Numbered from the stretch's first letter, positions 4,484-33,557 are shown. The stretch: DNA of 40,227 nt from a virus (UHGV-0148877), one strand, 5' to 3'. Program-made: numbers and translations. Notes: generated from the letters alone by a model not told the origin.

Positions 4484-4586
4484 GTTAAATCTCCAGATAG
4501 TCGCAGCACCCGTTGCGCCGCATATCTGGTTATTCTATTACCTGAAAAACCACATATGGATAGAAAGGATGTAAATACGAATAGAT

Positions 4587-4603
4587 ATTACCTTTCGGGT
4601 AAT
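4587..4603. promoter_or_regulatory. Operator palindrome ATTACC-TTTCG-GGTAAT
   Basis: Perfect 6+6 inverted repeat, about 75 nt upstream of the SOS-regulated small gene; an upstream hybrid copy ATTACC-TGAAA-AACCAC lies at 4538-4554. Confidence 0.55.
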
Positions 4604-4639
4604 TTGCAAAACGTGCTGGATAGCAAACAAATTATTTGC

Positions 4640-4659
4640 TACTGTATAAATATACAGTT
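4640..4659 (+). promoter_or_regulatory. LexA (SOS) box TACTGTATAAATATACAGTT
   Basis: Perfect CTGT-N8-ACAG with AT-rich spacer and TA flanks (core 4642-4657), 23 nt upstream of the ATG at 4680. Confidence 0.7.
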
Positions 4660-4679
4660 ATTGCATGGAGAAGATTAAG

Positions 4680-4937
4680 ATGCAGCAGTATCACTATCCA
4701 CTGGAAGACGGATTTACCGAAAGGATTCACACGCCAGAAGGCGTCAGGTCACTGGTGGAGGGATCGCACTTGATGAAATTACTCCGGGATCTCGATAAGG
4801 ATGGATTTAATGTCGATGGCCCACTTGCCGAACTGACTGCACTGATTAACTACGTCACCAGCTCACAGATGTCTATGCAGGATCTGCAAACACATCTCGA
4901 CTATTGTGCCGAACAATTACGAAAACAAACCCGGTAA
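4680..4937 (+). CDS. Small SOS-regulated protein paralogous to the antirepressor C-terminal domain (candidate antirepressor)
   Basis: 85 aa from the ATG at 4680 (GGAGAAG RBS); LexA box directly upstream; aligns by eye (about 40% identity over about 40 residues) with the C-terminal about 70 aa of the Bro-N antirepressor at 6083-6769 (IHTPEGV/IHSPSGV, AELTALINYV/AELTTMFCYI, DLQTHLDY/DIQTHAEY). Confidence 0.5.
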   Translation: MQQYHYPLEDGFTERIHTPEGVRSLVEGSHLMKLLRDLDKDGFNVDGPLAELTALINYVTSSQMSMQDLQTHLDYCAEQLRKQTR

Positions 4938-4939
4938 AT

Positions 4940-4975
4940 TTAAAGGCCGCAAGAGCGGCCTATCGTTTCGCTTTG
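4940..4975. terminator. Bidirectional hairpin terminator between convergent genes
   Basis: AGGCCGC-AAGA-GCGGCCT hairpin flanked by A/T-rich runs on both sides, between the 4680-4937 (+) and 4960-5688 (-) genes. Confidence 0.5.
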
Positions 4976-5688
4976 TGCTCATCCCAGCACGTTTTGCACC
5001 ATGCCATTAAGCCGTCCGCATTTTGATTATTAGGGTAAAAGCTGGTTCGTTTTCTGCGGACATTACAAATTGGGCACCACTTCATATGGCGTGTATTCTT
5101 TGGGCCATCGAGACACCTTGCACACCACTTAGTCAATCCATCTGGATTTTTTGACGATTTCCTGAATTTTTCATATGGAAGGTTTATTCTGCATCGCAAG
5201 CACTGCTTGCTACCACTTGAAACTCTGTTAGCTGATTCTTCTTTTGGCGGCGATACAGAAGGTATTCTTGCTGGCTCTGATACTGCCTGAGGTGCTTTTT
5301 TAGATGACTGAGACGATATGTCATCACCAGGGAATCTTCCATGATATGCCGGACGCGTTGACACTCCAGGTGGAAGCTCAGCTGTAAACGGCTTTGGCTG
5401 AATCAGTTGCCTCTCTTTTGCTAACTCCTGCTGTTTATAATATGTCTGGATTACCGCACTATCATAAGCAGGAGGTGCGGAAATATTAGGCGCATTACCT
5501 CCAGTTTTTTGAAACTGAGTAGAGGTGTGTTCTATCACCTGTGTACGATTAATCGTTATCTCCCCATCTTCGGTCTTTATCGTTTTGTTATGATTAACGA
5601 CCGTACGATCAGAGATCTTAGTCTTGTTCTGGTTGATAACGTAAATAATCACCGCAACCACACCAACAACTATCCAGAAAACTTCCAT
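4960..5688 (-). CDS. Membrane-anchored protein with tandem Cys-rich (zinc-ribbon-like) C-terminal repeats
   Basis: 242 aa; N-terminal TM helix (VFWIVVGVVAVIIYVI), Pro/Ser-rich linker, then two repeats of C-x2-C ... DGL-x2-WC-x2-C (CLRC...DGLTKWCARC; CPIC...DGLMAWCKTC); AT-rich; no family recognised. Confidence 0.55.
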   Translation of the reverse strand: MEVFWIVVGVVAVIIYVINQNKTKISDRTVVNHNKTIKTEDGEITINRTQVIEHTSTQFQKTGGNAPNISAPPAYDSAVIQTYYKQQELAKERQLIQPKPFTAELPPGVSTRPAYHGRFPGDDISSQSSKKAPQAVSEPARIPSVSPPKEESANRVSSGSKQCLRCRINLPYEKFRKSSKNPDGLTKWCARCLDGPKNTRHMKWCPICNVRRKRTSFYPNNQNADGLMAWCKTCWDEHKAKR

Positions 5689-5707
5689 TGCTTTTCCTCA
5701 CAATAAC

Positions 5708-5724
5708 ATTACTTTAAAGGTAAT
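5708..5724. promoter_or_regulatory. Operator-like palindrome ATTACT-TTAAA-GGTAAT
   Basis: 9/10 core match, 20 nt upstream of the start of the minus-strand membrane-protein gene (5688). Confidence 0.4.
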
Positions 5725-5800
5725 ATCTTGCTTTCAGGTGATCAAGCGTTAAACGCAATCAACCAAATACGGTTGATTTTAATATTTCTTCGCGTTTATC

Positions 5801-5817
5801 ATTACCTTTGCGGTAAA
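5801..5817. promoter_or_regulatory. Operator palindrome ATTACC-TTTGC-GGTAAA
   Basis: Perfect TTACC-N5-GGTAA core in the divergent region between the membrane-protein gene and the antirepressor gene. Confidence 0.5.
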
Positions 5818-6082
5818 TTTACATCGCACTCCTCTTGTGCCATAGTAATCGGGCACTGGCAAAATCCAGTGCCGGGATTGGCGTCCCGAGTTACTACAGA
5901 GGCACATATGCCGCATAAGCGGTTTTTTTATGTGTAAAGCGCACCTATTCTATGGTGGGCTGTGTGGGGGCACCGAAAGGTGCGCCGGGTCCTTTGTAGC
6001 CGGTTACGCCAACCCTGCACAGTTCACCACCAACCGATTGGCGTCGGTAGTGGTGATTAACCTAACTACAAAGGTGATCGCT

Positions 6083-6769
6083 ATGACTGCTAACGTAACC
6101 CCATCTGTTTTTCATTTTGAATCAGAAGCAACCATTCGAGCCATTGTTATTGATGGAAATCCTTGGTTTGTTGCCAAAGACGTTATTAAAGCTCTTCAAC
6201 TGACAAACCCCACTATGTCAATAAAATCTCTTGATGATGATGAAAGGGCTAAATTTAACTTAGGCCGTCAAGGCGAAACCAATATTATCAACGAGTCAGG
6301 CCTCTACACACTGATCCTCCGCTGCCGCGACGCAGTGACACCAGGCACTATCCCCTACCGCTTTCGTAAATGGGTTACAGGTGAGGTTCTTCCTCAGATC
6401 CGCCGCACCGGAAGTTACATTAAAAACTCGCTCCCGCAGGAAGAACGCATAAAGATGGTTGCCGACCAGGTAGCCAACGCCACGGCGTCAGCAGTAATGC
6501 AGGCGATGAAGATAGAGAACAAAACCTACAGTGCCCCACTGAAGCCCGGCTACCGCAGCCTGATTCATTCGCCGTCTGGTGTTCTCGGCCTGACGGAGAA
6601 CTCACTGCTGATGAATCTGCTGAACCAGTTACAGGACGACGGGCACGACGTATCGGGCGCGGCGGCGGAGCTGACCACCATGTTCTGCTACATCGTCGGT
6701 GTGAGCAAATGCCTGCGTGATATCCAGACGCACGCGGAGTACATCAACGACAAGGCAGGGTTCTTCTGA
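6083..6769 (+). CDS. Antirepressor with Bro-N domain
   Basis: 228 aa from the ATG at 6083 (AAGGTGA RBS); N-terminus IRAIVIDGNPWFVAKDVIKAL matches the Bro-N pattern; C-terminal domain paralogous to the 4680-4937 product. Confidence 0.8.
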   Translation: MTANVTPSVFHFESEATIRAIVIDGNPWFVAKDVIKALQLTNPTMSIKSLDDDERAKFNLGRQGETNIINESGLYTLILRCRDAVTPGTIPYRFRKWVTGEVLPQIRRTGSYIKNSLPQEERIKMVADQVANATASAVMQAMKIENKTYSAPLKPGYRSLIHSPSGVLGLTENSLLMNLLNQLQDDGHDVSGAAAELTTMFCYIVGVSKCLRDIQTHAEYINDKAGFF

Positions 6770-6777
6770 CGGGCGGC

Positions 6778-6800
6778 GGCACAGGGATGTGCCTTTAAAT
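6778..6800 (+). terminator. Possible intrinsic terminator after the antirepressor gene
   Basis: GGCACA-GGGA-TGTGCC hairpin followed by TTTAAAT. Confidence 0.35.
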
Positions 6801-6813
6801 AATTCTGTACAGA

Positions 6814-6842
6814 TTGCAGACTGTGGGTGAATAGCGTACTAT
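6814..6842 (+). promoter_or_regulatory. Sigma70-like promoter (TTGCAG-17-TACTAT) overlapping an operator
   Basis: -35 TTGCAG at 6814-6819, 17-bp spacer, -10 TACTAT at 6837-6842; the palindrome at 6841-6857 overlaps the -10 and start region. Confidence 0.45.
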
Positions 6843-6857
6843 TACCTCAAGGGTAAA
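6841..6857. promoter_or_regulatory. Operator palindrome ATTACC-TCAAG-GGTAAA
   Basis: Perfect TTACC-N5-GGTAA core overlapping the -10 of the promoter that reads into the toxin-antitoxin-like pair. Confidence 0.5.
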
Positions 6858-6916
6858 CGGATTGGTTTCATTTTTATTAATCCGTGTAATGAACTTATGA
6901 GATATGAGGTAATGTC

Positions 6917-7096
6917 ATGCGAAACGAAAAATTGCAGATGCGTAGAGCGCAAGCTGCCGCAAGACGTTCTTTCAATGGAAGCGTAGAGTGCGTAAAAGTT
7001 ACTATGACAAAAGATCACGCAAGTCGCGTATCCCGCGCTTTCTTTGATTCTCGTAACAATAAGGAAAATTATGAGTTCGTCTGCGTCGCAGAATGA
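6917..7096 (+). CDS. Small basic protein, candidate antitoxin (below the ORF-track cut-off)
   Basis: 59 aa (MRNEKLQMRRAQAAARRSF...), ATG with GAGGTAAT RBS; overlaps the start of the downstream toxin-like gene by 26 nt, the usual antitoxin-toxin arrangement. Confidence 0.3.
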   Translation: MRNEKLQMRRAQAAARRSFNGSVECVKVTMTKDHASRVSRAFFDSRNNKENYEFVCVAE

Positions 7097-7616
7097 TAAA
7101 AATCAAATTGTCAGATATAAGGGTCGAGTATTGCATACGCAAAATTTCTCGGCCCTTTGTGCATCTGATCTTGAGCTGAAGAAAGTATCTGATGCCTTTA
7201 CCCAGTATTGGAAAACGGGATACCATCCATCTCTTGGTAAAGATGCTGCATTTGCTCGTCCGACAGAAATGCTTAAACTAAATGTCAGGCATACTCATGT
7301 CGATAACCAAGACTATATTCCAGAAGATAGTGATAAAAAACACACTGGTAAAAAATCATCTTGGGATGCATGGAAAAAAATAGCGTCTGTGCAAGTAAAA
7401 TGCATACCAACAAGTAATTGCTTTTTAGTTTATTCGGTAAATCACAATCGTGATGCGCTGGTTATGTTTTTTGTTGACGCAGATGCCCACAACATAACTG
7501 AGCAAGAAGAGTTTAAAGAGGCAGCAATCACTATCAGTTATCAATTCTTTGAGAAAACAAAAACAGAACCAATGCCTTTAGAAGAAGATCTTTTTTCTGA
7601 TAAATGGAAGGAATAA
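7071..7616 (+). CDS. YafO-like toxin-family protein (putative ribosome-dependent mRNA interferase)
   Basis: 181 aa from the ATG at 7071 (AAGGAAAA RBS); segments DAFTQYWKTGYHPSLGKDAAF, LKLNVRHTHV and CFLVYSVNHNRDALVMFFV resemble the conserved blocks I recall for YafO-family toxins; AT-rich; family assignment is from memory. Confidence 0.45.
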   Translation: MSSSASQNDKNQIVRYKGRVLHTQNFSALCASDLELKKVSDAFTQYWKTGYHPSLGKDAAFARPTEMLKLNVRHTHVDNQDYIPEDSDKKHTGKKSSWDAWKKIASVQVKCIPTSNCFLVYSVNHNRDALVMFFVDADAHNITEQEEFKEAAITISYQFFEKTKTEPMPLEEDLFSDKWKE

Positions 7617-7711
7617 GCCCGCGCCGCGGGCTTTTTTGTGGACGAAACAAAAGTCAGTGCTACACTCATTGACGCCACATTGAGGTGGATTATAGATGGA
7701 AATTTTTCACA

Positions 7712-7873
7712 ATGAAAAAAGCATTTGCTGCACTGTTCGTTTTGTTGTCTCTGGTAGCTTCAACTCAGGCCTTTGCCGGTCGTTGTCAGCACGACAGCGA
7801 TACTGCCGCTGACGGCTCCCGCTGCGGTGGGCGTTCTGCGGATTCCCGTCCGGGCGGCGGTGGCATTCGTTAA
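7712..7873 (+). CDS. Small secreted peptide (signal peptide plus about 31-aa Gly/Arg/Asp-rich mature part with 2 Cys)
   Basis: MKKAFAALFVLLSLVASTQAFA then GRCQHDSDTAADGSRCGG...; classical signal peptide with AFA-G cleavage site; followed at once by a hairpin terminator. Confidence 0.4.
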   Translation: MKKAFAALFVLLSLVASTQAFAGRCQHDSDTAADGSRCGGRSADSRPGGGGIR

Positions 7874-7900
7874 AAACAAGGCCGCGAAAGCGGCCTGTTT
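7872..7900. terminator. Bidirectional intrinsic terminator
   Basis: AAGGCCGC-GAAA-GCGGCCT hairpin with A-run upstream and T-run downstream, between convergent genes 7712-7873 (+) and 7903-8754 (-). Confidence 0.6.
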
Positions 7901-7902
7901 GA

Positions 7903-8754
7903 TCACTGTGCAGTTTTCGCTGATCGATTTTCAGCTCTAAATTCAAGAACCGTTTCAATATTTCTTTCCTTCAGCATATCAATAACATTTTTATTCATTT
8001 GACTATCACTGGTTAATAACTGGTAAACGTTGCTTCTCTCTTTATCAGAGTTTTCTTTAACAGCTGCTTTGCATGCCAAATGCTTATTGAAATTTTCTAC
8101 ATCGCTAGTACAGGAATTTACGGCTGCTGATGAAATATCAGACGCTGAAGAAACACCGTCATCCAAACGTTTTATAGCATTTTCTATACATGAGTTAAGG
8201 GAATAAACGACAACTGAGCGATACCCTTCAGACGCACACCATTCTAAATTTCTTGAAGGATCGAGTGGTTTTACTTCGCTGGATTGAATTAACTTGTCAA
8301 AAACTGACTTATATTCAATCTGTTTTTTATCTATAGCCCATACTTCAGTAGCTGATTTATAATTCCCCGTATGCCTATTAACATCAAATCCATGTTTTAT
8401 AAGCAAATCTGCCCATGAAAGATTTATTGATTCATTGTTATGAGGCCATTTTCCTGTCAGAACCGCCCCCATAGACCCCATATATCCGCCATATGATGGT
8501 ATAGCACCATGGCTCAGTAACTTCTCTGCAACCACAGGGCAATTAATTACATAAGAGGCGTAAAGCCCATTCCATAAAGCCCCTCTATAGTAATCGCCAC
8601 GATTAGGTTCTTTTAAGTCGATAGCCTTTGATAATTGTTCGCACGTTTTGCATGCATCAAAGTTATCCTTATTGCATTGCAATGAACTGGCAGCTGTAGG
8701 ATTTACAGAGACTATTGAAAGCACTATGCCAAAAAACAAATTTATTTTTTTCAT
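7903..8754 (-). CDS. Secreted Cys-containing protein of unknown function
   Basis: 283 aa; N-terminal signal peptide MKKINLFFGIVLSIVSVNPTAASS; about 8 Cys; strongly AT-rich relative to the structural genes; ATG 1 nt after the stop of the 1129-aa protein gene. Confidence 0.6.
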   Translation of the reverse strand: MKKINLFFGIVLSIVSVNPTAASSLQCNKDNFDACKTCEQLSKAIDLKEPNRGDYYRGALWNGLYASYVINCPVVAEKLLSHGAIPSYGGYMGSMGAVLTGKWPHNNESINLSWADLLIKHGFDVNRHTGNYKSATEVWAIDKKQIEYKSVFDKLIQSSEVKPLDPSRNLEWCASEGYRSVVVYSLNSCIENAIKRLDDGVSSASDISSAAVNSCTSDVENFNKHLACKAAVKENSDKERSNVYQLLTSDSQMNKNVIDMLKERNIETVLEFRAENRSAKTAQ

Positions 8755-8755
8755 C

Positions 8756-11700
8756 CTATTTCATCTGCTCTTCAACTTTATTTAGTAATGGTGATATCGC
8801 CCACAGATTCTGAAAAGGTAGCATTTTACGGACAGCGTGGGTTTGCTGGCTGTCAAATTCTCCGTTAAGTACACCATTTGCAACCGTCGCGGCATCACCG
8901 CCAAGATCAAAGGTAGGACCAAGTAAAGCACCAATAGCATTACGACTCTGAAACCTTGATACCGGAGGCGCACCAAACATCGCGCCAAGACCAAACCTAC
9001 CGCCGCTTATGTTCTCAACGGTATTCAGCGGCTCAGAGAGCCAGCCAAGCATTCCGCCCCGGTCGATCCCCTCTTTCACAAGGTTATTCCAGCTGTAGTC
9101 GATATCGCGACCGCTTAACTTCTGTTTCATCATATAGACCATTGAGCCAAGCGCAATCGTGCCAAGCGCACCAAGATAGAATGCAGCATCGCCCTGCTGG
9201 ATACCAGATACCAGCACCCTGTTATGCTGTGCGAAGATAAACGTTTTGAACTGCGTGATCATCTTCCAGCCTTCTTTACTAAAAAACAGCGGTGTATCAC
9301 CTACGCCAGGCGTTACAATCACTGAGTCTACATCTTTCAGCACTGCAGACTGGAAAATCTCTCTAGCGAAACGGTCATCCCACAGATGACTATGCCCGGT
9401 TAACAGCCCGTCCATATCCTCTCCGTGCTTCCCGAATTGCTCCCCGATTCGGCGCAGAACATCTTCATTGATGCCGACCTGTGCCATCTTCCGCATTTCA
9501 CTTTTGGAGAGCGTGCCACCAGCAGAAACTTGGCGAGCCGCGTCAAGTATCCTCGACTGCACTATCATCCCAGACCATGATTTAAGTGCGCTGTTCCACT
9601 GATTCATCAGCGTCCAGTTACCGAATTTCTGCGTCATCCAGTTCAGACCTCGCTCAGCGGCGCTTCTCCGGCTATAGGGGTCAGTAAGATCCGCTATAGC
9701 CTTTGTACGCGTAGACAGGACATAATCAAGCCCAACTGCCATTTCTCGCAAATCCCTGGTTGCAATTTTCACTGAGTCCATATTTTTAAGCATGCTTACC
9801 ATTGGTCCGAGAGATTTTCTCAGGCCATGCTGCATCATCGGTCGCATCAGATCAGTTGCAGCGGAGACAGTCATTCCACCAAGCAAACGGAGGAAGTTAA
9901 TATTCCTAGCAACTCGCCCGGCACGAACAAAGAAACTGCGTGGATCTTGAGGTGCACCGTAAGTACCAAGCAGTCGATCACGCATAGCCGTAATATCCCT
10001 AATATCAGCCTCCCGTTGCTTCTCAAGAACTGCACGTCGTTTAGGTGTTTTAGCCTCTTTTATTAGCCGGGTATATTCCTCACTAACCTGACGGATTTGC
10101 TCCCCCATATCTTTACGGCCAAACTGCGCAGTCAGCTCAATTTCTGGTGCCACCTGCCGGAGATAACTTTCCATGATGTAGTTAACATCTGATTCAAGAA
10201 AATCTTCTATACGCTCATCAGGAATAAGCAGCGTTCTGCTTTTAGTGAAACCAGCCCGACCAACGAGTCTCTCTGGGATAATATCGGCTGGTACAAGCCC
10301 GGAAGGTGCGCCTATTATTTTATTCACGATCTCGTCAGCAGCGTCCTCTGCTTCCTCTCGGGATAGAGGCTCCATCTGCTTCAGTGCTCGCTCGCGGCTT
10401 GCATTCAGCCTTGTGGTTGAATTTGCCCGTTTTTGCAGTCGGCGAAGCTCAGAACGATATTTCCGTGGATTATCCAGCAACTCCATATGGCGCTGATAGA
10501 CAGGAAGCTCACTCTTTGCCTGCGCTATATCATCAAGGCGTGTTTTAAGGTCAGAGCTTTCTTTCATCATTCTTGCCTGAAGTTTTTCTGATGAAGTCTC
10601 GGCCAACTCTTTTTCTATTCTTGTAAGACGCGCCTGTGTGTCAGTCTCCTGAGATATAAGCTTATTTCGTTTATCCAGTTCTTCCATGAGTAGAATTTTT
10701 TTACCAGACCATTTCTCCGCTTCAGCGATTTCACTAGCGAGAGCATCAGCGCGCGGTGCTGATTCCTCTGCAGTTTTTAGCAATGAATTTATCTTTTCAA
10801 TTCGCTGACCTGCTTTGTCAGCACCTTTGGCACTAATCACTTGTATCCAGTTGGCAATTCGCCCTCTGAATTCAGTGCGGTCGGAAAGTATCTTATCGAA
10901 CTTATAAATGCGGGGAAGATAACTCTTCGCCGTCACGACATCGATATCCTCAGGAAGGATCCCCAATTCCTGCATACGGGCTTTTGTGGTCTCAAAAATG
11001 GGGCGGATTCTGGCGGCTGCTTGTGAAACCTCAGGAATATCACTCTGATCACCACGGCGCATAGCCATGCCAACAGCTTCATTGAAATCAATAAAGTTCA
11101 TCCTCTTCACGCCGCGGGCGCTGACAGATTTGCTGTACTGCTGGTAAGCATCACGAGTAGCTTCCATCTGCTTATAAAGCATGGCGTCGTATTGCTTAAT
11201 CTTAGTCTCGACTGCCGTAAACGTAGCCAACCCCTCATCATTTTTGGCGAAGAAATAGTTATTTTCGGCAAGCTGCTGGTTAATCTGACGGGAGACAAGA
11301 GATGGTGATTGCGCCAAGCGGCCAGCAGGAGTGACACTCAACGTTTTGTTAGCAAGTCCAAGTCCAGCGAGCTGTTCCTGATCGAGTGTGGTATTGAAAA
11401 CCTGAGCTGCACCAATGCTTTGAGGAGAATCCATACCTCGCAAATGATTACCTACTGAGTTAACCACTGCCTCGCGCGCGCTAGGTCCAGCAAGTAGCTG
11501 TGCACCAGCACCAAGGATCCCACCAACGAGAGCATCAACAACAACGTTCGATACGCTCTCCATCGGTGAGCGAGCTTCCTGAGTGGCCTGTAATGCGGCT
11601 TCTGATACTCCCCCACCAGCAGCATTCGCCAGGGCAAAACGCCCTGCCGTCTCAGCAATACTTCCTCCACGCGCTACCGCCCCTACAGGGATGAACATTG

Positions 11701-21906: not shown

Positions 21907-21917
21907 GATCTTTCCCC

Positions 21918-24178: not shown

Positions 24179-24385
24179 TTACTGACCAAGTAGCGTTTTA
24201 CCGCTGGTATTAGCGGTTGATGTGTCGCCCTGAGAACCGGTAAGCAGCGTAGAACTACGACCAGCAGCAGCGCGACGGCGACGTGTTTCTTCGTCGCGGG
24301 CATCAACAACGGCGGCATCCTGCTCCTGTGGTGCTGCCTGAACTTCTGGTGTTGCAGGCACTGATGGTGAGCTACCCATGCACAT
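24179..24385 (-). CDS. Small low-complexity protein upstream of portal
   Basis: 68 aa, Ala/Arg/Pro/Thr-rich; ATG with GGAG RBS 9 nt upstream; ends 12 nt before the portal start. Confidence 0.3.
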   Translation of the reverse strand: MCMGSSPSVPATPEVQAAPQEQDAAVVDARDEETRRRRAAAGRSSTLLTGSQGDTSTANTSGKTLLGQ

Positions 24386-24474
24386 ATCAATGACTCCGTA
24401 CGCAATTAAATTATTACCAATTTAACCACATATGATTTATTTATCGTAGATAGTTGACATTTAACGCACAAATT

Positions 24475-24812: not shown

Positions 24813-24889
24813 GTGGCATTAGCTCAGTTGGACAGAGCAACCGCCTTCTAAGCGGTTGGTCGCAGGTTCGAATCCTGCATGCCACGCCA
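24813..24889 (+). tRNA. tRNA-Arg (anticodon UCU)
   Basis: 77 nt folded by hand: 7-bp acceptor stem GTGGCAT/ATGCCAC, D stem GCTC/GAGC, anticodon stem ACCGC/GCGGT with loop CTTCTAA (anticodon TCT), T stem GCAGG/CCTGC with loop TTCGAAT, discriminator G, encoded CCA. Confidence 0.9.
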
Positions 24890-24932: not shown

Positions 24933-24975
24933 GGCGGTGATGGTTTCCCTTGAAGGACTATCACCGCCCTTTTTA
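24933..24975 (+). terminator. Intrinsic terminator downstream of the tRNA
   Basis: GGCGGTGAT...ATCACCGCC inverted repeat followed by CTTTTT. Confidence 0.5.
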
Positions 24976-25052
24976 CAGCAGGACGCCATTGCGATGACTT
25001 CATGCTGTAAACCAGTACAGCCACGGAAGGCATAACTCATTGCTTCCAGTTC

Positions 25053-25076
25053 GCCCGGTTCGCCGGGCATTTTTTT
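25053..25076 (+). terminator. Intrinsic terminator (second, stronger)
   Basis: GCCCGG-TTCG-CCGGGC perfect 6-bp stem with tetraloop, followed by A and TTTTTTT. Confidence 0.6.
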
Positions 25077-25205
25077 AAGGTGTGAATCATGAAATACGAA
25101 TTCGATGGATTTTGATGTCGTGACATGTCACAAACAGCCAGCCGATGAGCTGGCTTTGTTTTATCCTCACCAGAGGATATCAGCAGCATTATCCCCTCCA
25201 GAGGA

Positions 25206-26681: not shown

Positions 26682-27274
26682 TGATTACCATCCTGACGTT
26701 CTTTGAGTCGCTTCCTGGCTGCTGCTATGCGATCAGCAATTGTCACATTCACATTAACATCCAGACGTTCTTTGAACGCGTTGACATCAACATGCTTACC
26801 AATCAGTTCTAGGTTCTTCACCTTGTCAGGCCATTTAATTTTTTTGAGGATTGTCTCTATCGAATCCTCGTTCATGTTCATGATGGTCGATGACAGATCA
26901 AAGCCACTAAGCGTAGTGCGCCAGATTTTCGGCCACTCACGGATTGGTTTAAGGCTCCCATCGTCGTTGAGGATGTCGATCACGTCCATCTGGTCGATCT
27001 CCACCAGGCGCATGAGAACGTAATCAGCACTGACGCGCATTCGTTTGTTGCGCTCCTCCATCAACTCGGCAATCCGTTTCTGAATGCGTTCATCGCGCAT
27101 CATGACACTGGCTTTAACTGCCGCTGTATTTGGGGAGAATCCTGCGTTAATCGCTGCCTGAGTCTGGTTTTCAGGCGTTTTGATGTATGACTGGCAATAA
27201 GCCTCCTGCATTGCAGTTAGTGGCTTAAATTGCGTTGATTTGCGTTTATAGGTTTTAGGTTCAGCAGGCATCAT
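26678..27274 (-). CDS. Terminase small subunit
   Basis: About 198 aa from the internal ATG pair at 27274/27271 (MMPAEPKTYKRK...); immediately upstream of TerL and overlapping its start; the track's longer N-terminus would run through operator-like repeats. Confidence 0.6.
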   Translation of the reverse strand: MMPAEPKTYKRKSTQFKPLTAMQEAYCQSYIKTPENQTQAAINAGFSPNTAAVKASVMMRDERIQKRIAELMEERNKRMRVSADYVLMRLVEIDQMDVIDILNDDGSLKPIREWPKIWRTTLSGFDLSSTIMNMNEDSIETILKKIKWPDKVKNLELIGKHVDVNAFKERLDVNVNVTIADRIAAARKRLKERQDGNQ

Positions 27275-27290
27275 AACCACCGTGGTAATA

Positions 27291-27307
27291 GTTACCGTTG
27301 TGGTAAT
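27291..27307. promoter_or_regulatory. Operator palindrome GTTACC-GTTGT-GGTAAT before the late (terminase) genes
   Basis: Perfect TTACC-N5-GGTAA core; part of a 14-bp direct repeat (GGTA(C/A)CTATTACCAC x2 on the minus strand) between an early-operon terminator and the TerS start. Confidence 0.5.
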
Positions 27308-27316
27308 AGTACCATG

Positions 27317-27346
27317 CAAAATAAAGCCGCCATAGTTGGCGGCAGT
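27317..27346 (-). terminator. Intrinsic terminator between the early/nin-like block and the terminase genes
   Basis: On the minus strand GCCGCC-AACTAT-GGCGGC hairpin followed by TTTATTTTG. Confidence 0.5.
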
Positions 27347-27392
27347 ATTCAAAACCCATCAAATTCATCATGCATAATCTACTCGTGACATT

Positions 27393-27734
27393 TCACACTA
27401 TTAATTTCGTTTCATGCCAGCCTTTAGTCACCCAGCATTGCGAGTCACCATTACAAGGGCATGAATTAACTGGAACTCTCTCGCCGCACTTACCGCAACG
27501 TTTTCTGCTGATCGATTTTATACGCCCGCGCACGCGTGCATCATCCTGGCGGATCAGTAACGCTATATACTCACCAAATTCGTAAGGCGCACGCCCGGGG
27601 CGACGCGTGGCACAGTTACGCTCCAGCATTTCAATTTCCTGAGCATCAAGCACAATTTCCAGCTTACGCACACCAGATGCAGCTTGTCTTGCTCTCTGAG
27701 CGGCTTTGCGCTCTGCTGCTGATTTAGCCATCAA
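27393..27734 (-). CDS. Small regulator-like protein with Cys-rich zinc-finger-like C-terminus
   Basis: 113 aa; basic N-terminal region then CGKCGERVPVNSCPCNGDSQC; last gene before the terminator that precedes TerS. Confidence 0.45.
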   Translation of the reverse strand: MMAKSAAERKAAQRARQAASGVRKLEIVLDAQEIEMLERNCATRRPGRAPYEFGEYIALLIRQDDARVRGRIKSISRKRCGKCGERVPVNSCPCNGDSQCWVTKGWHETKLIV

Positions 27735-28005
27735 TATTTACCTTTATCGCGTACACCTTTACCGGCTTATCGCCGAAGTGCGGATGTGTGATTGTTTTCA
27801 CTTCATATCCGTTATACGGGACATCAATTCTGCGACTGAAGTCGTCGCGCTTCGGATATCCCTTTGTGATAATCAGGCGGTCATACTTACGGTTAACGAG
27901 GCGCTTTTTCCAGTAGTCATTACACAGGCGATACTCTTCCGTTTTCTCTCCGCGAATCATGGCATCGAAGTATTCACCTTTAACGGCAAGTTGCAGGTTA
28001 GCCAC
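27724..28005 (-). CDS. DUF3850-like (ASCH-fold) protein
   Basis: About 93 aa from the GTG at 28005 (AGGTGG RBS), which removes the track's 137-nt overlap with the upstream gene; LAVKGEYFDAMIRGEKTEEYR matches the recalled DUF3850 N-terminal pattern. Confidence 0.45.
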   Translation of the reverse strand: MANLQLAVKGEYFDAMIRGEKTEEYRLCNDYWKKRLVNRKYDRLIITKGYPKRDDFSRRIDVPYNGYEVKTITHPHFGDKPVKVYAIKVNIDG

Positions 28006-28801
28006 GGTTAACCACCTGCTTCGGTGCTGCTGGCATTTCACGCCAGTGCGTAACTGAGTGCGGATCCGGATATTCGGTGCCATCATCCCAGCGATTACCA
28101 TTCCACATTGCAGACCACATCTCACCGTCTTCATACATGACCATTACCGGAATTAACTTATCCGGCATTCGCTCACTACAGCTTATCCAAGCATCCGGAG
28201 TTACCGGAGAATTGCCACCCTGAACAGTAGGCATATCCGGACCTTTGCGAATCGCCCTGGCAAGATCGATTGGGTCGTCGTACAACCAGTCACCTGTTTG
28301 CGGATGATTGGCTTCTGCCAATTGTGCAGCCCACTCCAGGCCGTCTTTGTGTCCTTGCAGATAGTCCAGCGGTAACTCATCACTATTACTTACAGGTTCG
28401 GCCTGAAGCATGGCGGCGCGATAGGCGTTCCAGCCGACAGCTTTTCCGTGTTCAAACGCGCTGTCAAAGTCATCATCCATTTCCATCGCAGCGGGCACAG
28501 ATACCGGCGCTGGAGGGACGGTGTAGAGCGGCATTACCTCAATATTGAAGATATCCCCCTCGCTTGGACACGCCTCTGCGCTACCGTAAACCCAAGGGTG
28601 AACGACTCCGTTACGCTTGTTGATTAATCTGTGCGCCCACGCCACAGGCTCCGCTTCGAGCGATGCCAGCGCGATACGCGCATTATTAATCAGGAGGCTA
28701 TCAGCAGGAGATAAAACAACATGAGCGTTTCCCTCCGCATCAATTTCAGAATTCGTAATTTTTCTGAACAGCTTTGCCAGTTCTTTGGTAATAGTGCTCA
28801 T
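27998..28801 (-). CDS. DUF551-domain protein
   Basis: 267 aa; C-terminal WISCSERMP...WDDGTEYP...VTHWREMP resembles the DUF551 signature recalled from lambdoid accessory regions. Confidence 0.55.
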   Translation of the reverse strand: MSTITKELAKLFRKITNSEIDAEGNAHVVLSPADSLLINNARIALASLEAEPVAWAHRLINKRNGVVHPWVYGSAEACPSEGDIFNIEVMPLYTVPPAPVSVPAAMEMDDDFDSAFEHGKAVGWNAYRAAMLQAEPVSNSDELPLDYLQGHKDGLEWAAQLAEANHPQTGDWLYDDPIDLARAIRKGPDMPTVQGGNSPVTPDAWISCSERMPDKLIPVMVMYEDGEMWSAMWNGNRWDDGTEYPDPHSVTHWREMPAAPKQVVNRG

Positions 28802-28804
28802 GGG

Positions 28805-29239
28805 TTAGTCCTCACCTTTCTGTTGCACTACCGGAACCGATAAATCGACGCACCAGGAGATAACGCCGAATTGATCATCGTTCTGCGCTTCACCCCAAAC
28901 GTAATATTTTGATCCTGGCCGACCCATTGCCGGGTCAAATACTTCTATGCCGCGTTCTGCCGTTAACGACATCAGAATCTGATGCAGGCCGCCTTTGATG
29001 TTCAGTGACGGAACGGTCAGGAAGTAAATAAACCCGTAAAGCAATTCGGCCTTGCGCTGGCTTCCGTAAAAATACGGGATTTTGTAATAATCCAGCGCGT
29101 CGTCGAGCCAGTCTGTTTTGTCGTGGAATTTCTGATGCCAGCGTTCCACTACCTCATCGACAGGTTGACCGGCAACCATTGCAACGCAGGTAGCCATGCA
29201 GGTGTTAAATGTTGGCTGCATTTGATGTTGAAGCATCAC
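28805..29239 (-). CDS. Hypothetical protein
   Basis: 144 aa ORF packed tightly in the nin-like block; N-terminal Cys cluster (NTCMATCVAM); no family recognised. Confidence 0.45.
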   Translation of the reverse strand: MMLQHQMQPTFNTCMATCVAMVAGQPVDEVVERWHQKFHDKTDWLDDALDYYKIPYFYGSQRKAELLYGFIYFLTVPSLNIKGGLHQILMSLTAERGIEVFDPAMGRPGSKYYVWGEAQNDDQFGVISWCVDLSVPVVQQKGED

Positions 29240-29931
29240 TCCCCCTTACCGATGCCGGCGGCGCGGTCTATGCGTTCGATTTCAGCCAGAATTAAAGCCC
29301 CTGCTTTTACCAGGTTGCGACGGCGGGCATTTGGCTTCCACCATGAAGCATCCCAAGGCCACCCCCACGGCTTGCCACCATTGCGGTTAACAGTTTCTGT
29401 TTCGTTTATGTAACAAACCGCCGCCATTGCCAGTTCCCCGTTGCAGTGTTCGTCATCATGCTCTGGCATCCACCCATCAACCGATTGTTGCCGCTGGCGC
29501 TCTGCTATCACATCCAGAATTGCAGGATTGAATGCACGCGCTTCCAGTTCAGCGATTCGCTTCTCTGCGGCTTCCAGCTCAACACGCAGCTTCCCTACAG
29601 TTAGCGCAATTTCCTCGTTCTCCTGATCGCGGCGTTTTATGTATTGCTGGTTTCTTTCCCGTTCATCCAGCAGCGCCAGCACGGTAGCTGGATTGGCTGC
29701 GGCGATGAATTCAGCATTGGCCTGCTGTTCCATTTGGAAATCTTCATAGAAACGGCTTTCTGGATGCGCTCCTTCAATTCTGCAAATAGGAATATATCCA
29801 GCAACCTCGCGATGAATTAGTGCATCATCACCATCAAATCGTCCCTCTCCATATTCGAGCGACCACACACCACACGTTGCTTTCTCTGCCTTTTCACGCA
29901 GTGCCTGATAGTCAATTGTCATTCTCGCCAT
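29236..29931 (-). CDS. Ead/Ea22-like protein
   Basis: 231 aa; central coiled-coil (KLRVELEAAEKRIAELEA) and C-terminal Trp-rich WGWPWDASWWKP, recalled as typical of Ead/Ea22-like proteins. Confidence 0.55.
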   Translation of the reverse strand: MARMTIDYQALREKAEKATCGVWSLEYGEGRFDGDDALIHREVAGYIPICRIEGAHPESRFYEDFQMEQQANAEFIAAANPATVLALLDERERNQQYIKRRDQENEEIALTVGKLRVELEAAEKRIAELEARAFNPAILDVIAERQRQQSVDGWMPEHDDEHCNGELAMAAVCYINETETVNRNGGKPWGWPWDASWWKPNARRRNLVKAGALILAEIERIDRAAGIGKGE

Positions 29932-30596
29932 CCTTCACAGTTGTAATCACTACAGCCTTCAAAATCATATGGGCTGTACTGCCAGGTTATTTTTCCGCAA
30001 TGCGGACAATTCCAACGCACCTTCCCGCTTCGCGACTTCTTTCTTCTGTTCTGCTCTTTCAACCAGTCAGGCATGACCAAACCTGCGCCCTGAACCATTG
30101 TTCTGCGATTAAAGTTATTGATATTGAACGTCCGGCGCTTTGCTGAATCAGCAATGGAAAATGGCAACCAAACTATTCCTGGTTCGTTTTTGTTGGCGAC
30201 GCTAAAGATGGTCGCTTTACTGAAGTCATCTGTTGGCAATCCACCGTGTTGAAGCCAGTAAACATCGTTGCCGTTCCAGCTACCTTTTTTGTAGGCCACA
30301 TACGCAGTGCAATCTGGCTCAATCAGGTTTTCTGTAGGGATGTACTGGCAATCAACGTGCCACACAGCCATTGCATCCACGATATCAGCGCAAACAGGCT
30401 GATCGATATCTCGACCACAATTCCAGGCTTTTTGGGCTTCTTCCAGCGTGTAAACATGAGCGCGATCGATATTAGAACTGTAACCATTGCCGTTATGGCA
30501 ATGGAATGAAGCGTTATTACCCACAGTTTCACGCAAGCACATCATGTAAAAGCGGTTATTCACTGGCTGCTTCCTTTGCGAATCTGTTCCGCCCAT
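29919..30596 (-). CDS. Hypothetical Cys-rich protein
   Basis: 225 aa (start uncertain; an internal ATG pair at 30545/30542 is an alternative); C-terminal WNCPHCGKITW...CSDYNCEGW zinc-ribbon-like motifs. Confidence 0.45.
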   Translation of the reverse strand: MGGTDSQRKQPVNNRFYMMCLRETVGNNASFHCHNGNGYSSNIDRAHVYTLEEAQKAWNCGRDIDQPVCADIVDAMAVWHVDCQYIPTENLIEPDCTAYVAYKKGSWNGNDVYWLQHGGLPTDDFSKATIFSVANKNEPGIVWLPFSIADSAKRRTFNINNFNRRTMVQGAGLVMPDWLKEQNRRKKSRSGKVRWNCPHCGKITWQYSPYDFEGCSDYNCEGWRE

Positions 30597-31141
30597 TCTT
30601 CAAGGGATTTCTCCGCATATTCACCAGACAGGCCATCAATCGGATGCGCTTCATTAGCCAACTCTTCTTTCGCTGACAAAATCATGCGTGTAACGTCGAA
30701 AACTTCACGCAAAGACTTATTGATAAATCCGTGATTGAACGCAGCAGCAAGACGGCTGGCGGTATAGTTAATCCCCTCGTTGCGTGCTTCCGCACGAATT
30801 TCAGACAGGAAAGCATCGGTGGCTGGGGTGTCTGATTGCATAGACTTTGCGCGATAATCATTCCACCCTCTTGCATATATGGGATTAACTTGCACCCCAT
30901 CTTTTACGCAATATGCCTGACCTCCACGGTTGATAACCTTGATTTCGTCCATAGCGCCAGACTTCAGCCCCGCATTCTCCGCCGCCAGCGCATTAGCACG
31001 CACCAGTTGCACTTCCAGTTGCGTTGCCAAATCGCTGATCAGCTTTGCCACACTACGCATATCAACGGCACCACATTCAGCTTTCAGTTCCGAAGCCATC
31101 TCATGCCCGGCGGCAACTAACCCTTTGATATTACTTTCCAT
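30560..31141 (-). CDS. Hypothetical protein
   Basis: 193 aa ORF in the nin-like block; no motif recognised. Confidence 0.45.
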   Translation of the reverse strand: MESNIKGLVAAGHEMASELKAECGAVDMRSVAKLISDLATQLEVQLVRANALAAENAGLKSGAMDEIKVINRGGQAYCVKDGVQVNPIYARGWNDYRAKSMQSDTPATDAFLSEIRAEARNEGINYTASRLAAAFNHGFINKSLREVFDVTRMILSAKEELANEAHPIDGLSGEYAEKSLEEWAEQIRKGSSQ

Positions 31142-31202
31142 CTTTACCCTCGCTTATCCACATAACTTATTGATTACATTGATAACTAAAAAGATCGTCG
31201 AT

Positions 31203-31547
31203 TCAGAACTTTTCGATGTTCCAGCCACCACCTGCTTTCTTTGGTTTAACCGTTACCCCGATGATTCGGAACGGATACTGATCTGCGGCGACTTTGGTTT
31301 TCACTCTGGCGTCGTCGGTCCAGAAACCTTTCACTTCGTGCAGTTCCATCTCGCCGGAGGCGAGCATCACAGCGAAATCGGGCGTATAAAACGTGTTATC
31401 AGCTAACCGCAGCTTGATACCCTCGAACCGATACCAGGCGATTTCCCCTGCACGTTTACGCTGCTCAAGGTGCTGGCAATACGCAGATTCTGTTTTGTTC
31501 ATCTGGCCTGTTTTGAGTCGACCAAGAGCCTGTATCTGTTTTCTCAT
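31203..31547 (-). CDS. Hypothetical protein (possibly DUF1064-like)
   Basis: 114 aa; first gene downstream of P; two operator palindromes lie at and just upstream of its start. Confidence 0.45.
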   Translation of the reverse strand: MRKQIQALGRLKTGQMNKTESAYCQHLEQRKRAGEIAWYRFEGIKLRLADNTFYTPDFAVMLASGEMELHEVKGFWTDDARVKTKVAADQYPFRIIGVTVKPKKAGGGWNIEKF

Positions 31548-31549
31548 GA

Positions 31550-31566
31550 TTTACCCCTGAGGTAAT
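31550..31566. promoter_or_regulatory. Operator palindrome TTTACC-CCTGA-GGTAAT
   Basis: Perfect TTACC-N5-GGTAA core abutting the start codon of the 31203-31547 gene. Confidence 0.5.
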
Positions 31567-31611
31567 TAAAAACCACATAAGACACGAAATCAATAGATTT
31601 TAGAATATTTT

Positions 31612-31628
31612 ATTACCCAGCAGGTAAT
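31612..31628. promoter_or_regulatory. Operator palindrome ATTACC-CAGCA-GGTAAT
   Basis: Perfect 6+6 inverted repeat with 5-bp spacer in the P to nin intergenic region. Confidence 0.55.
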
Positions 31629-31664
31629 CATCGAGACGTAAAAAAATGCGCTATCGCGCTGGTA

Positions 31665-32465
31665 TTACTTGATAAATCCTGCCGCCTTTCCCCGCCTGTA
31701 TTCCTCCATCAGCCACTGCGCCGGTGTTATTCCCCCAAGGGTGGCGGCGTTAGGCATGCACCCGAAACTTCGCCCTGGTGGATGGTAAACGTCTCTCCCT
31801 GTGTCCGGAGGTGTACTCATGGGTTCTGGCTTTGCCTGTATGCTGATCACCGGATCGGGTATCTGCTGTCCGGAAGCCACCTTTTTCGCCCAATCATCGA
31901 GCAGCCTGCGCGCGTGTTTCTCAACCTCAATCTCGCTAAGCTGGCGCTGATACATTGCACGGCGGGTATCACATACGACCCAGTACATAACCGGATGCCG
32001 CCACGGGAATCTTTCGGGACCACCAGGATATAAACTTTTTTCCTTGCTGTACCGGTGAAACTCCGCCATCACATCGTCAATGGTGACGCCAAGAACCATC
32101 TTGCTGTCTTTACACCACTTGATAAATTGCCCTGGCGACGGCCAGAACGGAGATTCACTGGCGCGGGCGTGGCGCATACCAGCAGAAACCTGTTCACGGG
32201 TTCGGATCCCCCCTTCGGCAAACGCAGCAATCCACTGCTGTTTTGCAGCAACTTCCTGCTCTGGCGTCTTCAGGTTGGTTACCACTGCCGCCGGAAACAG
32301 TTGTTTCAGCTGTTTGAAAAGGGCATCAACAAGCCTCTCTGCTGACATGTTCACTACGTTGTCATTGTTGGTGTACTGATGCTCATAACCTGACATGCGA
32401 GAAAGGGCTTCTCCGTCACGGTTTTGTATTGCGGTAAAAACGTTGTTCACAAGAAATCCTCCCAC
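31665..32465 (-). CDS. Replication protein P-like (DnaB helicase loader)
   Basis: 266 aa; block LFPAAVVTNLKTPEQEVAAKQQWIAAFAEGGIRTREQVSAGMRHARASESPFWPSPGQFIKWC closely parallels my recollection of lambda P. Confidence 0.75.
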   Translation of the reverse strand: MGGFLVNNVFTAIQNRDGEALSRMSGYEHQYTNNDNVVNMSAERLVDALFKQLKQLFPAAVVTNLKTPEQEVAAKQQWIAAFAEGGIRTREQVSAGMRHARASESPFWPSPGQFIKWCKDSKMVLGVTIDDVMAEFHRYSKEKSLYPGGPERFPWRHPVMYWVVCDTRRAMYQRQLSEIEVEKHARRLLDDWAKKVASGQQIPDPVISIQAKPEPMSTPPDTGRDVYHPPGRSFGCMPNAATLGGITPAQWLMEEYRRGKAAGFIK

Positions 32466-33262
32466 GCTTCAGGGCTGTTCCAGTGCGGAACGTTGTTATC
32501 AGGTAATGTTGATTGCTTCTGTCTGCTAATCTGCAGCCGCCTTGCCAGCTTCTGCTCCCACTGTGCCTGATGGTATGCCTTACCCTCAGCCATCCAGTAA
32601 ATTCTGAACTCTGCAAGTTCCTGTGCCGTTGGCAGACTGTCCAGGTAGATCCCCTGCAATGAGCTTTTCCGAAGAAAGTCATCTGATGGCTGCCATTTTT
32701 CATGCATGACAAATTTGCCTAATTGCCCTGGCCCACCAGGAGGAACAAAGTTATTCATCACGGCGTTGTTTGCGCCGGGGTCATGATGCACAGAATCCCC
32801 GTTTTTTGTCCTGCTCTCCCTCTCTTGGTTAAATGACTGGTTATATGACTGGTTCTGGATCCCGTTTTTGGGATCATTCAACATCCCGTTTTTGGGATCA
32901 TTCAACATCCCGTTTTTGGGTATATTCCCGTTTTCGGTAACATTACCGTTTTCGGGTTCATTGCCCCCCTCTCGGTTGCCTTTAATGTTCCCGTTTTTGG
33001 TTATATTAAGAGAGAAAACCCGCACTCTTTTTGTCGCTCCCTTTCTCTCCCCGGTATCTGAAATAAGCCCCATTTTCATGAGCGATATAAGTCCGGCCTG
33101 CACGGTTTTTTTATTCAGGCAAGTGTCTTTAACGAGGCGTTCTATGCTGGGGTAGCAGAGGTTATATTCATCGGCTCTGTCAGCCATCGAGAGCAGTATG
33201 AGCTTTAATGACGAGCTACCTGGATCTGTCTCCCAGGCCCAATCTGTTGCATGTCTGCTCAT
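32447..33262 (-). CDS. Replication initiator O-like protein (iteron-binding) with internal origin
   Basis: 271 aa; N-terminal HTH-like domain, central repetitive Asn/Gly-rich linker encoded by the iterons, C-terminal domain; directly upstream of and overlapping the P-like gene. Confidence 0.7.
   Translation of the reverse strand: MSRHATDWAWETDPGSSSLKLILLSMADRADEYNLCYPSIERLVKDTCLNKKTVQAGLISLMKMGLISDTGERKGATKRVRVFSLNITKNGNIKGNREGGNEPENGNVTENGNIPKNGMLNDPKNGMLNDPKNGIQNQSYNQSFNQERESRTKNGDSVHHDPGANNAVMNNFVPPGGPGQLGKFVMHEKWQPSDDFLRKSSLQGIYLDSLPTAQELAEFRIYWMAEGKAYHQAQWEQKLARRLQISRQKQSTLPDNNVPHWNSPEAWEDFL
32859..33005. repeat. Replication-origin iterons inside the O-like gene
   Basis: At least five direct repeats with core CCGTTTT(T/C)GG at roughly 24-bp spacing; the first two 24-mers ATCCCGTTTTTGGGATCATTCAAC are identical (32859-32882, 32883-32906). 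Confidence 0.7.
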
Positions 33263-33277
33263 GATTAATCTCCGCTA

Positions 33278-33478
33278 TCAGCTTGAATGTTGTGGGGAGG
33301 AATTAATCATGATCTGCTTAATCTCTGCCCTGATACGACGGTTTGATTCCATGGTGCACTCAACACAGTGTCCGTTGTAAACCCAGCGTTCACTGTCATG
33401 TCCGTGCTTACATGTTTTTCCGGTGTAGTAGCGTTTAAGTCCGCGCTTTGCGGCATCAATACGTGTAATGATTTCCAT
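33278..33478 (-). CDS. Small Cys-containing protein between cro-like and O genes (cII position)
   Basis: About 66 aa from the internal ATG at 33478 (MEIITRIDAAKRGLKRYYTGKTCKHGHDSERWVYNGHCVEC...); C-x3-H ... C-x2-C spacing suggests a zinc-binding motif. Confidence 0.4.
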   Translation of the reverse strand: MEIITRIDAAKRGLKRYYTGKTCKHGHDSERWVYNGHCVECTMESNRRIRAEIKQIMINSSPQHSS

Positions 33479-33557
33479 GGTAAGCCCTGTTATTAGTATT
33501 GGGATTACGGTTATTTTGTGCTGACACAAAAAAAAGATCAACCACATTTGGTTTTTT

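Follow-up and report, generated by a model that had tools for sequence, protein, structure and literature searches.

A conserved 14-bp dyad phased with repressor operators at lytic promoters of epsilon15-like phages: a candidate second operator class

The window examined here is the whole 40,227-nt sequence of the virus UHGV-0148877, which megablast identified as an epsilon15/phiV10-like temperate podophage prophage of the genus Uetakevirus. In this window, we found a 14-bp dyad, WWCC-ATATRT-GGTT in the direction of transcription (best form, AACCATATATGGTT), that recurs upstream of the lytic operons, is conserved in related phages, and keeps fixed distances to the operators of the Rep repressor, from which it differs in layout. 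We tentatively interpret the dyad as a second operator class of epsilon15-like phages and the predicted site of a second regulator, with the small helix-turn-helix (HTH) protein gp39 as its likeliest binder. The dyad is ordinary in kind, as a phage operator or late-promoter element. What is unusual is its near-ubiquity at lytic promoters and its strict phasing with repressor operators. The best megablast matches of the window were EC.W1-9, HEMP4, TL-2011b, phiv142-3, and phiV10, with 96-98% identity. Its gene order is that of phiV10 and epsilon15, inverted, and the lytic and structural genes therefore lie on the minus strand.

A sequence-only reading of the window had pointed to a recurrent 12-mer beside operator palindromes at four loci. 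The 12-mer AACCACATWWGR had exactly four matches in the window, all on the plus strand (4548-4559, 24424-24435, 31571-31582, and 33540-33551), against 0.04 expected, and none of 100 shuffled sequences reached four. The proposal that four near-identical copies are improbable by chance was thus borne out. The 8-mer AACCACAT alone was weakly enriched (4 vs 1.65 expected; 6 of 100 shuffles reached four). The first two starts, 4548 and 24424, had been placed correctly, and the last two were each one base too low, the true starts being 31571 and 33540. However, the 12-mer is not itself the unit of conservation. It is the better-conserved side of the 14-bp dyad, which is read on the opposite strand, and in the direction of transcription it appears as YCWWATGTGGTT upstream of the minus-strand operons. 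The dyad was defined by scanning phiV10, epsilon15, Tyrion, BUCT711, and SPN1S. Perfect AACC-N6-GGTT dyads with an AT-rich N6 occurred three times in the window (0.065 expected), at 1857, 5761, and 33540, and the copies at 4548 and 24424 carried one mismatch. When up to one mismatch was allowed, there were seven dyads against 1.65 expected, a number reached in none of 400 simulated windows. Of these seven, the two at 4091 and 15736 were intragenic and look like chance matches, and the remaining five fell in promoter regions. The dyad symmetry was also found in the relatives. In its symmetry, its length within 14-18 bp, and its half-sites within 4-6 bp, the dyad has the layout of an operator for an HTH dimer of the 434/lambda/P22 type.

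The copies were distributed over the operons as follows. The L1 dyad (4548..4561, minus strand; ATCCATATGTGGTT) lies upstream of the tail-fibre gene 2294..4483 (-), and the L2 dyad (24424..24437, minus strand; AATCATATGTGGTT) lies upstream of the gp3-like gene 24179..24385 (-), which opens the head/structural operon. The L3 dyad (31571..31584, minus strand; TGTCTTATGTGGTT) precedes the DUF1064 gene 31203..31547 (-) of the middle operon, and the perfect L4 dyad (33540..33553, minus strand; AACCAAATGTGGTT) precedes the gp40-like gene and the O/P-like replication genes. L1 to L4 are, in this order, the four loci that had been listed earlier. All four were confirmed, and the list was incomplete: the dyad was also present in perfect form at L0 (1857..1870, minus strand; AACCATAAATGGTT), upstream of the lysis operon with its first gene at 1394..1807 (-), and at L5 (5761..5774, plus strand; AACCAAATACGGTT), where it forms part of the extended palindrome TCAACC-N6-GGTTGA in the isrK/c4-antirepressor promoter. 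A half-conserved copy was located in the spacer of PL (34699..34712, plus strand; AACCAGATACGCAT). The hybrid ATTACC-N5-AACCAC sites described at two of the loci do exist, at 4537-4553 and 24413-24429, but they are not operators of the Rep type. Each consists of the dyad followed, after 5 bp, by a conserved GGTAAT half-site that overlaps the -10 region (4537..4542 on the minus strand at L1, where it overlaps the inferred -10, and the equivalent 24413-24418 at L2). The sequences GGTAATAGAAT at L1 and GGTAATAATTT at L2 were invariant in six genomes. No Rfam family covered any dyad site; the sole matches in the window were isrK, C4, and a tRNA, which lie apart from the dyads. Neither the epsilon15 nor the phiV10 record annotates the dyad. 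It is also not mentioned in a regulatory paper on the genus (PMC9782041); the primary epsilon15 and SPC32H papers lie outside that scope, and an earlier description in them is possible.

The dyad was present at 5-6 homologous loci in phiV10, epsilon15, SPN1S, Tyrion, and BUCT711, with diverged flanks. In locus alignments of six genomes, the intergenic DNA was diverged except for islands of identity at the Rep operator, at the dyad, and at short promoter-like hexamers. At L1, the dyad was kept as (A)T(T/C/A)CATAT(nn)GGTT in six genomes, 40.5 bp from the equivalent of the operator 4587-4603 in all of them, and at L2 the block ATATGTGGTTAAATTGGTAATAATTTAA was identical in 6 of 6. IMG/VR was searched with the flanks only (GGTAAT-N12..20-TTGATCTTTTT), and the dyad was left free to avoid bias. 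This search returned 76 loci of the L4 type, and WWYC-N6-GG was present in all 76. The N6 centre varied among them yet was AT-rich (AAATAC, AAATCT, ATATAC, GAATAT, GTTTGT, ATTTAT, and others). The spacing from operator to promoter was 16 nt in 71 of the 76 loci; in the remainder, slippage of an A-run had made it 15 or 17 nt. In GTDB, the L4 arrangement was kept in 11 loci, where CC-N6-GG was invariant and the N6 was AT-rich but varied. The arrangement was kept in prophages of Citrobacter, Pseudescherichia, Erwinia, Kluyvera, Buttiauxella, Superficieibacter, Pseudocitrobacter, Scandinavium, and Klebsiella, and also in a contig labelled Pseudomonas lundensis. At PL, a full copy was found in Tyrion only, a half copy in window-type phages, and none in the epsilon15 group. 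An IMG/VR search with the gp3-like protein returned near-identical loci only. Neither the dyad nor the operators were found in the decayed mosaic Sodalis phiSG1 or in the GC-rich Cobetia phage Carin1, which is without the repressor module.

Two minor points arose from these alignments. In the interval between operator and dyad at L2, GTCAA(T/C)...CTACG was kept in 6 of 6 genomes; at 24453-24458 the plus strand reads the consensus TTGACA and the minus strand TGTCAA, and this conserved opposite-strand hexamer could mark a divergent promoter or a site for another protein. The idea that a weak canonical operator is compensated by pairing with a perfect dyad held at some loci in the six genomes and failed in the GTDB set.

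The operator palindrome to which the 12-mer had been linked is ATTACC-N5-GGTAAT. With up to two mismatches, it had 15 matches in the window against 1.2 expected, and its epsilon15 counterparts carry the GenBank annotation of a repressor protein_bind site (NC_004775). By this pattern and the epsilon15 annotation, the canonical Rep operators were assigned to the partner site of L1 (4587..4603; ATTACCTTTCGGGTAAT, whose homologous site in epsilon15 is so annotated), to that of L2 (24475..24491), and to two sites at L3, one upstream (31612..31628) and one promoter-proximal (31550-31566). The operator of L4 (33558..33574; ATTACCTTTGAGGTGCG) has an intact ATTACC half on the given strand and a weak opposite half. 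The gap between motif and operator had been put at 17-50 bp; the real edge gaps are 27 bp at L1, 39 bp at L2, 6 bp at L4, and, with its two operators, 29 and 4 bp at L3. Measured from centre to centre, the distance was 19.5 bp at L4, 40.5 bp at L1, and 52.5 bp at L2. At L3, it was 19.5 bp to the proximal and 42.5 bp to the upstream operator, and the same two values were obtained at PL (operators 34717-34733 and 34655-34671, respectively). The L5 dyad lies 41.5 bp from the operator 5801-5817 and 51.5 bp from the operator 5708-5724. In phiV10, epsilon15, Tyrion, and SPN1S, a distance of 43.5 bp separates the dyad homologous to L0 from a canonical operator. Wherever both operator and dyad were detected, the distance at each locus was identical in all six genomes, and every distance was within 1.5 bp of a multiple of 10.5. 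This helical phasing had a resultant R of 0.82, a value equalled by 58 of 200000 random sets of ten distances, or by 410 of 200000 when PL was left out. These results indicate a conserved placement of the dyad on the same helical face as the Rep operators. The proposed tie between motif and operators was therefore upheld, at homologous loci across genera whose flanks have diverged and at invariant distances near whole helical turns. In the L0 region of the window itself (1870-1915), the dyad is perfect, the canonical operator is cut by differing upstream sequence, and a GGGAAT remnant stands at the expected place, which is hard to reconcile with silent lysis genes in this prophage if the upstream operator is needed.

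The sequence-only reading had also offered a conserved promoter element of duplicated regulatory modules as an explanation. When the six regulatory regions were compared by alignment, the Rep operator and the dyad were the only parts that matched. The spacers differed in length and sequence, so the regions are not recently duplicated modules. Promoters were assigned from conserved hexamers and not from mapped start sites. With these assignments, the dyad overlapped the -35 or the spacer of every lytic promoter examined except the immediate-early PR. At L4 and L5, it sits at the upstream edge of the -35 (GG|TTGATY), followed by 17-18 nt and then CAAAAT or TATCAT, with the dyad centre at about -40.5. 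The L4 dyad ends with the first two bases of the inferred -35 TTGATC (33536-33541; inferred -10 CAAAAT, 33513-33518), and the L5 dyad overlaps the inferred -35 TTGATT (5773-5778; inferred -10 TATCAT, 5797-5802). At L3, PL, and the L0 of the window, the order is -35, 3 nt, the dyad filling the spacer, and -10, with the dyad centre at about -19.5. The hexamers here are TTGATT (31588-31593) and TTTAAT (31565-31570) at L3, GTAACA (1874-1879) and TATTAT (1851-1856) at L0, and TTGACA (34690-34695) and AATTAT (34713-34718) at PL. At L1 and L2, the -35 position falls within the dyad, and TCCATA, TTCATA, or ATCATA stands 17 nt upstream of TAGAAT or TAATTT (inferred L1 -10: TAGAAT, 4532-4537). The gap from GGTT to the best-conserved -10 was accordingly 0 bp at L3, L0, and PL, about 8-10 bp at L1 and L2, and 21-22 bp at L4 and L5. 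The distance to the -10 hexamer is thus not fixed as it is for a sigma-70 core element, and a fixed core-promoter element is contradicted by this variation. In a promoter scan, L1, L2, and L4 fell under the sigma-70 consensus threshold, and PR and PL passed it. L1 and L2 loosely fit the layout of a P1-type late promoter, with a -10 and a spacer inverted repeat and no -35, and L3, L4, L5, and PL have a recognisable -35.

The dyad and the canonical Rep operator have an ACC...GGT core in common, and both are palindromes spread over the lytic operons in or beside promoters, as the Rep operators of epsilon15/SPC32H-type phages are. The dyad always accompanies canonical operators. However, it is a 14-bp N6 element and the operator is a 17-bp N5 element in a 6-5-6 layout: every dyad reads CC-N6-GG, and no register yields ACC-N5-GGT. 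The outer flanks of the dyad vary (AAAA, TTTT, AATC, TCT, and others), whereas the canonical operator has a conserved outer ATT/AAT. The dyad centre is constrained, as an AT-rich W-W-W-T-R-Y, whereas that of the operator is free. Also unlike the operator, the dyad is unannotated in the epsilon15 and phiV10 records and absent from PR/PRM, where three canonical operators and no dyad were found in any genome compared. The N6 spacing, the lack of a conserved outer ATT, and the constrained centre in all copies point to a different reading head.

A site for a second regulator, one of the possibilities raised from the sequence, is the best-supported reading of these data, and gp39, encoded at the cro position, is a credible candidate binder. 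The gp39-like gene (33629..33859, minus strand; 76 aa) encodes a Cro-type HTH protein and is the sole gene between PR and the terminator 33588-33607. We consider gp39 the leading candidate for the protein that binds the dyad. Sequence searches of Pfam, NCBIfam, and PDB with gp39, gp40, and gp49 gave nothing, and gp39 matched a PHROG repressor family and was weakly similar to the N-terminal HTH of Rep. Its structural model was a confident five-helix HTH domain of the Cro/C1 type (pLDDT 89.5), with YdaS and the N-terminal domain of the 434 repressor as the nearest folds by Foldseek. The gp39 family is narrow (at least 57% identity) and confined to these prophages, and the recognition helix AGTT(S/A)HYIQTHLTG hardly varies: across members of 57-99% identity, the most distant ones carry 1-2 substitutions in it. 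In the proposed mechanism, a small phage HTH dimer would read the dyad, and gp39, the only product of the PR transcript ahead of the terminator, is its best candidate. In the lysogen, Rep on the phased upstream operators would veto the promoter. Once Rep has been removed by the LexA-controlled antirepressor Ant, the dyad-binding protein would determine how active all downstream promoters are. At L1 and L2, the weak promoters of the tail-fibre and head genes, activation is favoured, with the late-promoter palindrome of P1 and the CII site of lambda as analogues; at the spacer sites, turning down may occur instead. If gp39 sets the downstream promoters in this way, this would explain why gp39 is isolated by a terminator, why PR, which drives gp39, alone lacks the dyad, and why the head and tail-fibre promoters, which need strong expression, have a weak -35.

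Several observations weigh against gp39 as the reader of the dyad. The E-values of its Foldseek matches were not significant. Its synteny makes gp39 a Cro, a type of protein that usually acts at the repressor's own operators. The different offsets of the dyad from the inferred -10 (about 0, 8-10, and 21-22 bp) are awkward for one activation geometry. Phasing with Rep operators suggests joint action of Rep and the occupant of the dyad, yet gp39 is expected to be absent in lysogens. In IMG/VR and GTDB, gp39, the N-terminal helix of Rep, and the dyad were all invariant and always co-occurred, so that sequence comparison cannot separate the two proteins. Further possible binders are the zinc-ribbon-like gp40, the PerC-like and AlpA-like proteins, and PL-encoded products. 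The gp40-like gene (33278..33481, minus strand; 67 aa) is the first past the gp39 terminator, in the position of lambda cII, and with its CxHxH...CxxC zinc-ribbon-like motif its product is another possible DNA-binding regulator.

The phasing is best accounted for if the dyad is a second, non-canonical site of Rep itself. One unit of the Rep tetramer would sit on the operator and the other on the promoter-proximal dyad, through either a further N-terminal pair or an HTH_3-like middle pair; the promoter would be occluded in the lysogen, and Ant would free both sites. The Rep of SPC32H, to which the Rep of the window is homologous, is a DNA-binding tetramer with two separated domain pairs and a tetramerisation domain of the looping type (PMC9638917, PMC9986798). 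Its N-terminal domain binds DNA and its middle domain dimerises, and the middle-domain pairs are about 100 Å apart in the crystal (PMC9638917, PMC9986798). Fixed operator-dyad distances near whole helical turns would be expected from such an arrangement, and the 19.5-bp distance is similar to the 17-18 bp that separate neighbouring canonical operators at PR and upstream of terS. The operators of L0, L1, L2, and L4 lie about 60-80 bp upstream of the inferred start, and the dyad is the sole full site over the core promoter there, so the lysogen needs an occupant at these dyads. Over-expression of Rep in phage ZX5 lowers holin and endolysin transcripts by 99.97-99.99% (PMC9782041). The ACC...GGT core common to both half-sites and a second HTH_3 signature in Rep (residues 106-147, E 1e-9) are also in line with a Rep site. 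However, all dyads deviate from the operator in the same way, which points to a different reading head. Rep has an invariant N-terminal helix, NLVNRW. The recognition helix of its middle HTH differs by clade (AQVTISR, GPATVNR, and SQASINR) and the dyad does not, and published work assigns the middle domain to dimerisation. Furthermore, PL, L3, and L5 retain the dyad despite canonical operators over -10/+1, and the lysis promoter of the window keeps a perfect dyad though its canonical operator is truncated. On balance, we consider a second Rep site rather unlikely, though it is the main rival. A specific form of it, in which the N-terminal HTH pair reads ATTACC-N5-GGTAAT and the HTH_3-like middle pair reads AACC-N6-GGTT, appears improbable to us. 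If it were true, one tetramer would clamp each lytic promoter via two phased operators, and Ant would release both together.

Since every copy overlaps inferred core promoter elements and the element is kept across hosts of many genera, the dyad might also be a part of the promoter, read by RNA polymerase or by a sigma-like factor not yet recognised, or a target of a nucleoid protein or global regulator common to Enterobacterales. The hexamers TCCATA, TTCATA, and ATCATA, exactly 17 bp before TAGAAT/TAATTT at L1 and L2, are possible weak -35 elements. Against this, the offset to the inferred -10 is inconstant, the stronger half is oriented differently in PL and L3, and dyad symmetry with strict CC/GG is foreign to sigma-70 elements. 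No sigma factor or RNA polymerase gene was found among the window open reading frames (ORFs) that were checked, which counts against a promoter element. The suggestion of a host factor did not hold up: compared with consensus sequences by eye only, without a scan, the dyad fitted none of IHF, CRP, Fis, DnaA, LexA, and MqsA. The best case, by the same comparison, was a DnaA box that agreed at 8 of its 9 positions at one locus and at 6-7 of them elsewhere, and the IHF sites annotated in the epsilon15 record lie beside the dyad and not on it. We regard a promoter part or host-factor site as doubtful, and clearly more so than a second Rep site. A gp49-like protein (gene 27393..27734, minus strand) may also be considered as the binder. 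It is possibly a ribbon-helix-helix and Cys-rich protein, and PHROG annotates it as 'transcriptional regulator'. Its gene ends the middle operon just before terS, the classical position of a late activator, and the late promoters are weak. However, the homolog in the Pantoea myophage AH07 is 62% identical, with the N-terminal 60 residues nearly the same, and the AH07 genome has neither an AACC-N6-GGTT-like site nor an ATTACC-type operator. The AH07 gene stands beside an excisionase at the end of a leftward operon, other members of the family occur in N15-like, Yersinia, and Vibrio phages of different types, and the dyad is also found at the early promoters L4 and PL. The gp49-like regulator was set aside because this near-identical homolog occurs without such a dyad or operator, and we consider it a very unlikely binder, the least probable of those weighed here.

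The interpretation of the dyad as a second operator, read by gp39 or a similar protein, has parallels in known phage systems. The phage 434 operator ACAA-N6-TTGT has the same 4-6-4 layout. Like the dyad, the 434 operators are 14 bp long with an AT-rich centre and overlap promoters, and gp39 belongs to the same five-helix fold class. However, the half-sites differ, and the 434 sites are confined to OR/OL and common to repressor and Cro, whereas the dyad is spread over 6-7 promoters and distinct from the main repressor sites. In phage P1, C1 operators are dispersed, and Lpa-dependent late promoters carry an inverted repeat near -22 that replaces the -35. P1 resembles the phage of the window in having one repressor with operators at many operons, and a separate palindrome in weak late promoters from the -35 position to the -10. 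There is no sequence similarity between the two, and unlike the P1 repeat, the dyad also stands at early and middle promoters with varying offsets. The sites of lambda CII and P22 C1 (TTGC-N6-TTGC) share with the dyad the 4-6-4 layout, the location over a poor -35, and, with gp39 as the proposed binder, control by a small early phage HTH protein. The CII site differs in being a direct repeat at a fixed position of about -32.5, and gp39 is in the position of cro, not cII.

Epsilon15-like phages, including epsilon15, phiV10, SPC32H, and SPN1S, have served as structural models, serotype-converting phages, and O157 reporter phages. Their known switch consists of Rep and LexA-controlled Ant only, and it accounts neither for the timing of the many separate operons nor for silencing from a Rep operator 60-80 bp upstream of an inferred start. 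As a second operator, the dyad would provide the cis element that is missing here, and it offers a way to tighten or re-time expression in phiV10-derived reporter phages. Both components of the switch were found in the window. The product of the Rep gene (34014..34598, plus strand) is homologous to the Rep of SPC32H, which has been crystallised (5d50_A, E 4e-42), and that of the antirepressor gene (4665..4937, plus strand; 90 aa) is homologous to SPC32H Ant (5d50_E, E 4e-47). A perfect LexA box (4635-4650; CTGTATAAATATACAG) lies upstream of the Ant gene, which indicates induction via SOS-controlled antirepression and not via repressor cleavage.

A c4 RNA/antirepressor module resembling that of P1 is also present in the window. 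Downstream of the L5 promoter (5773-5802), Rfam identified an IsrK-like small RNA (5853-5929) and a C4 antisense RNA (5948-6034, plus strand), located where the called Bro-N antirepressor ORF (5930..6769) starts. The L5 region looks like a c4-ant module of the P1/P7 immI type under two Rep operators and the dyad. A terminator-like hairpin (5910-5923), followed by T7, stands just before the called ATG of 5930..6769, and the start codon of this ORF is therefore probably wrong.

Further features were observed elsewhere in the window. In the region of 27273-27307 and 27326-27343, two canonical operators (ATTACCACAACGGTAAC and ATTACCACGGTGGTTAT on the minus strand) abut each other. The pair lies directly after a terminator and at or just within the start of the small terminase ORF, and no dyad is present there. 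Situated between the terminase genes and the promoter of the head operon, a tRNA-Arg gene (anticodon tct; 24813-24889, plus strand) runs opposite to the structural genes. The replication-initiator gene 32447..33262 (-) encodes a product with DnaT and HTH_36 domains. Within this gene, at 32860-32950, three to five iterons CCCGTTTTTGGG(A/T) are repeated with a period of about 24 bp, and by analogy with lambda O they are probably the phage origin.

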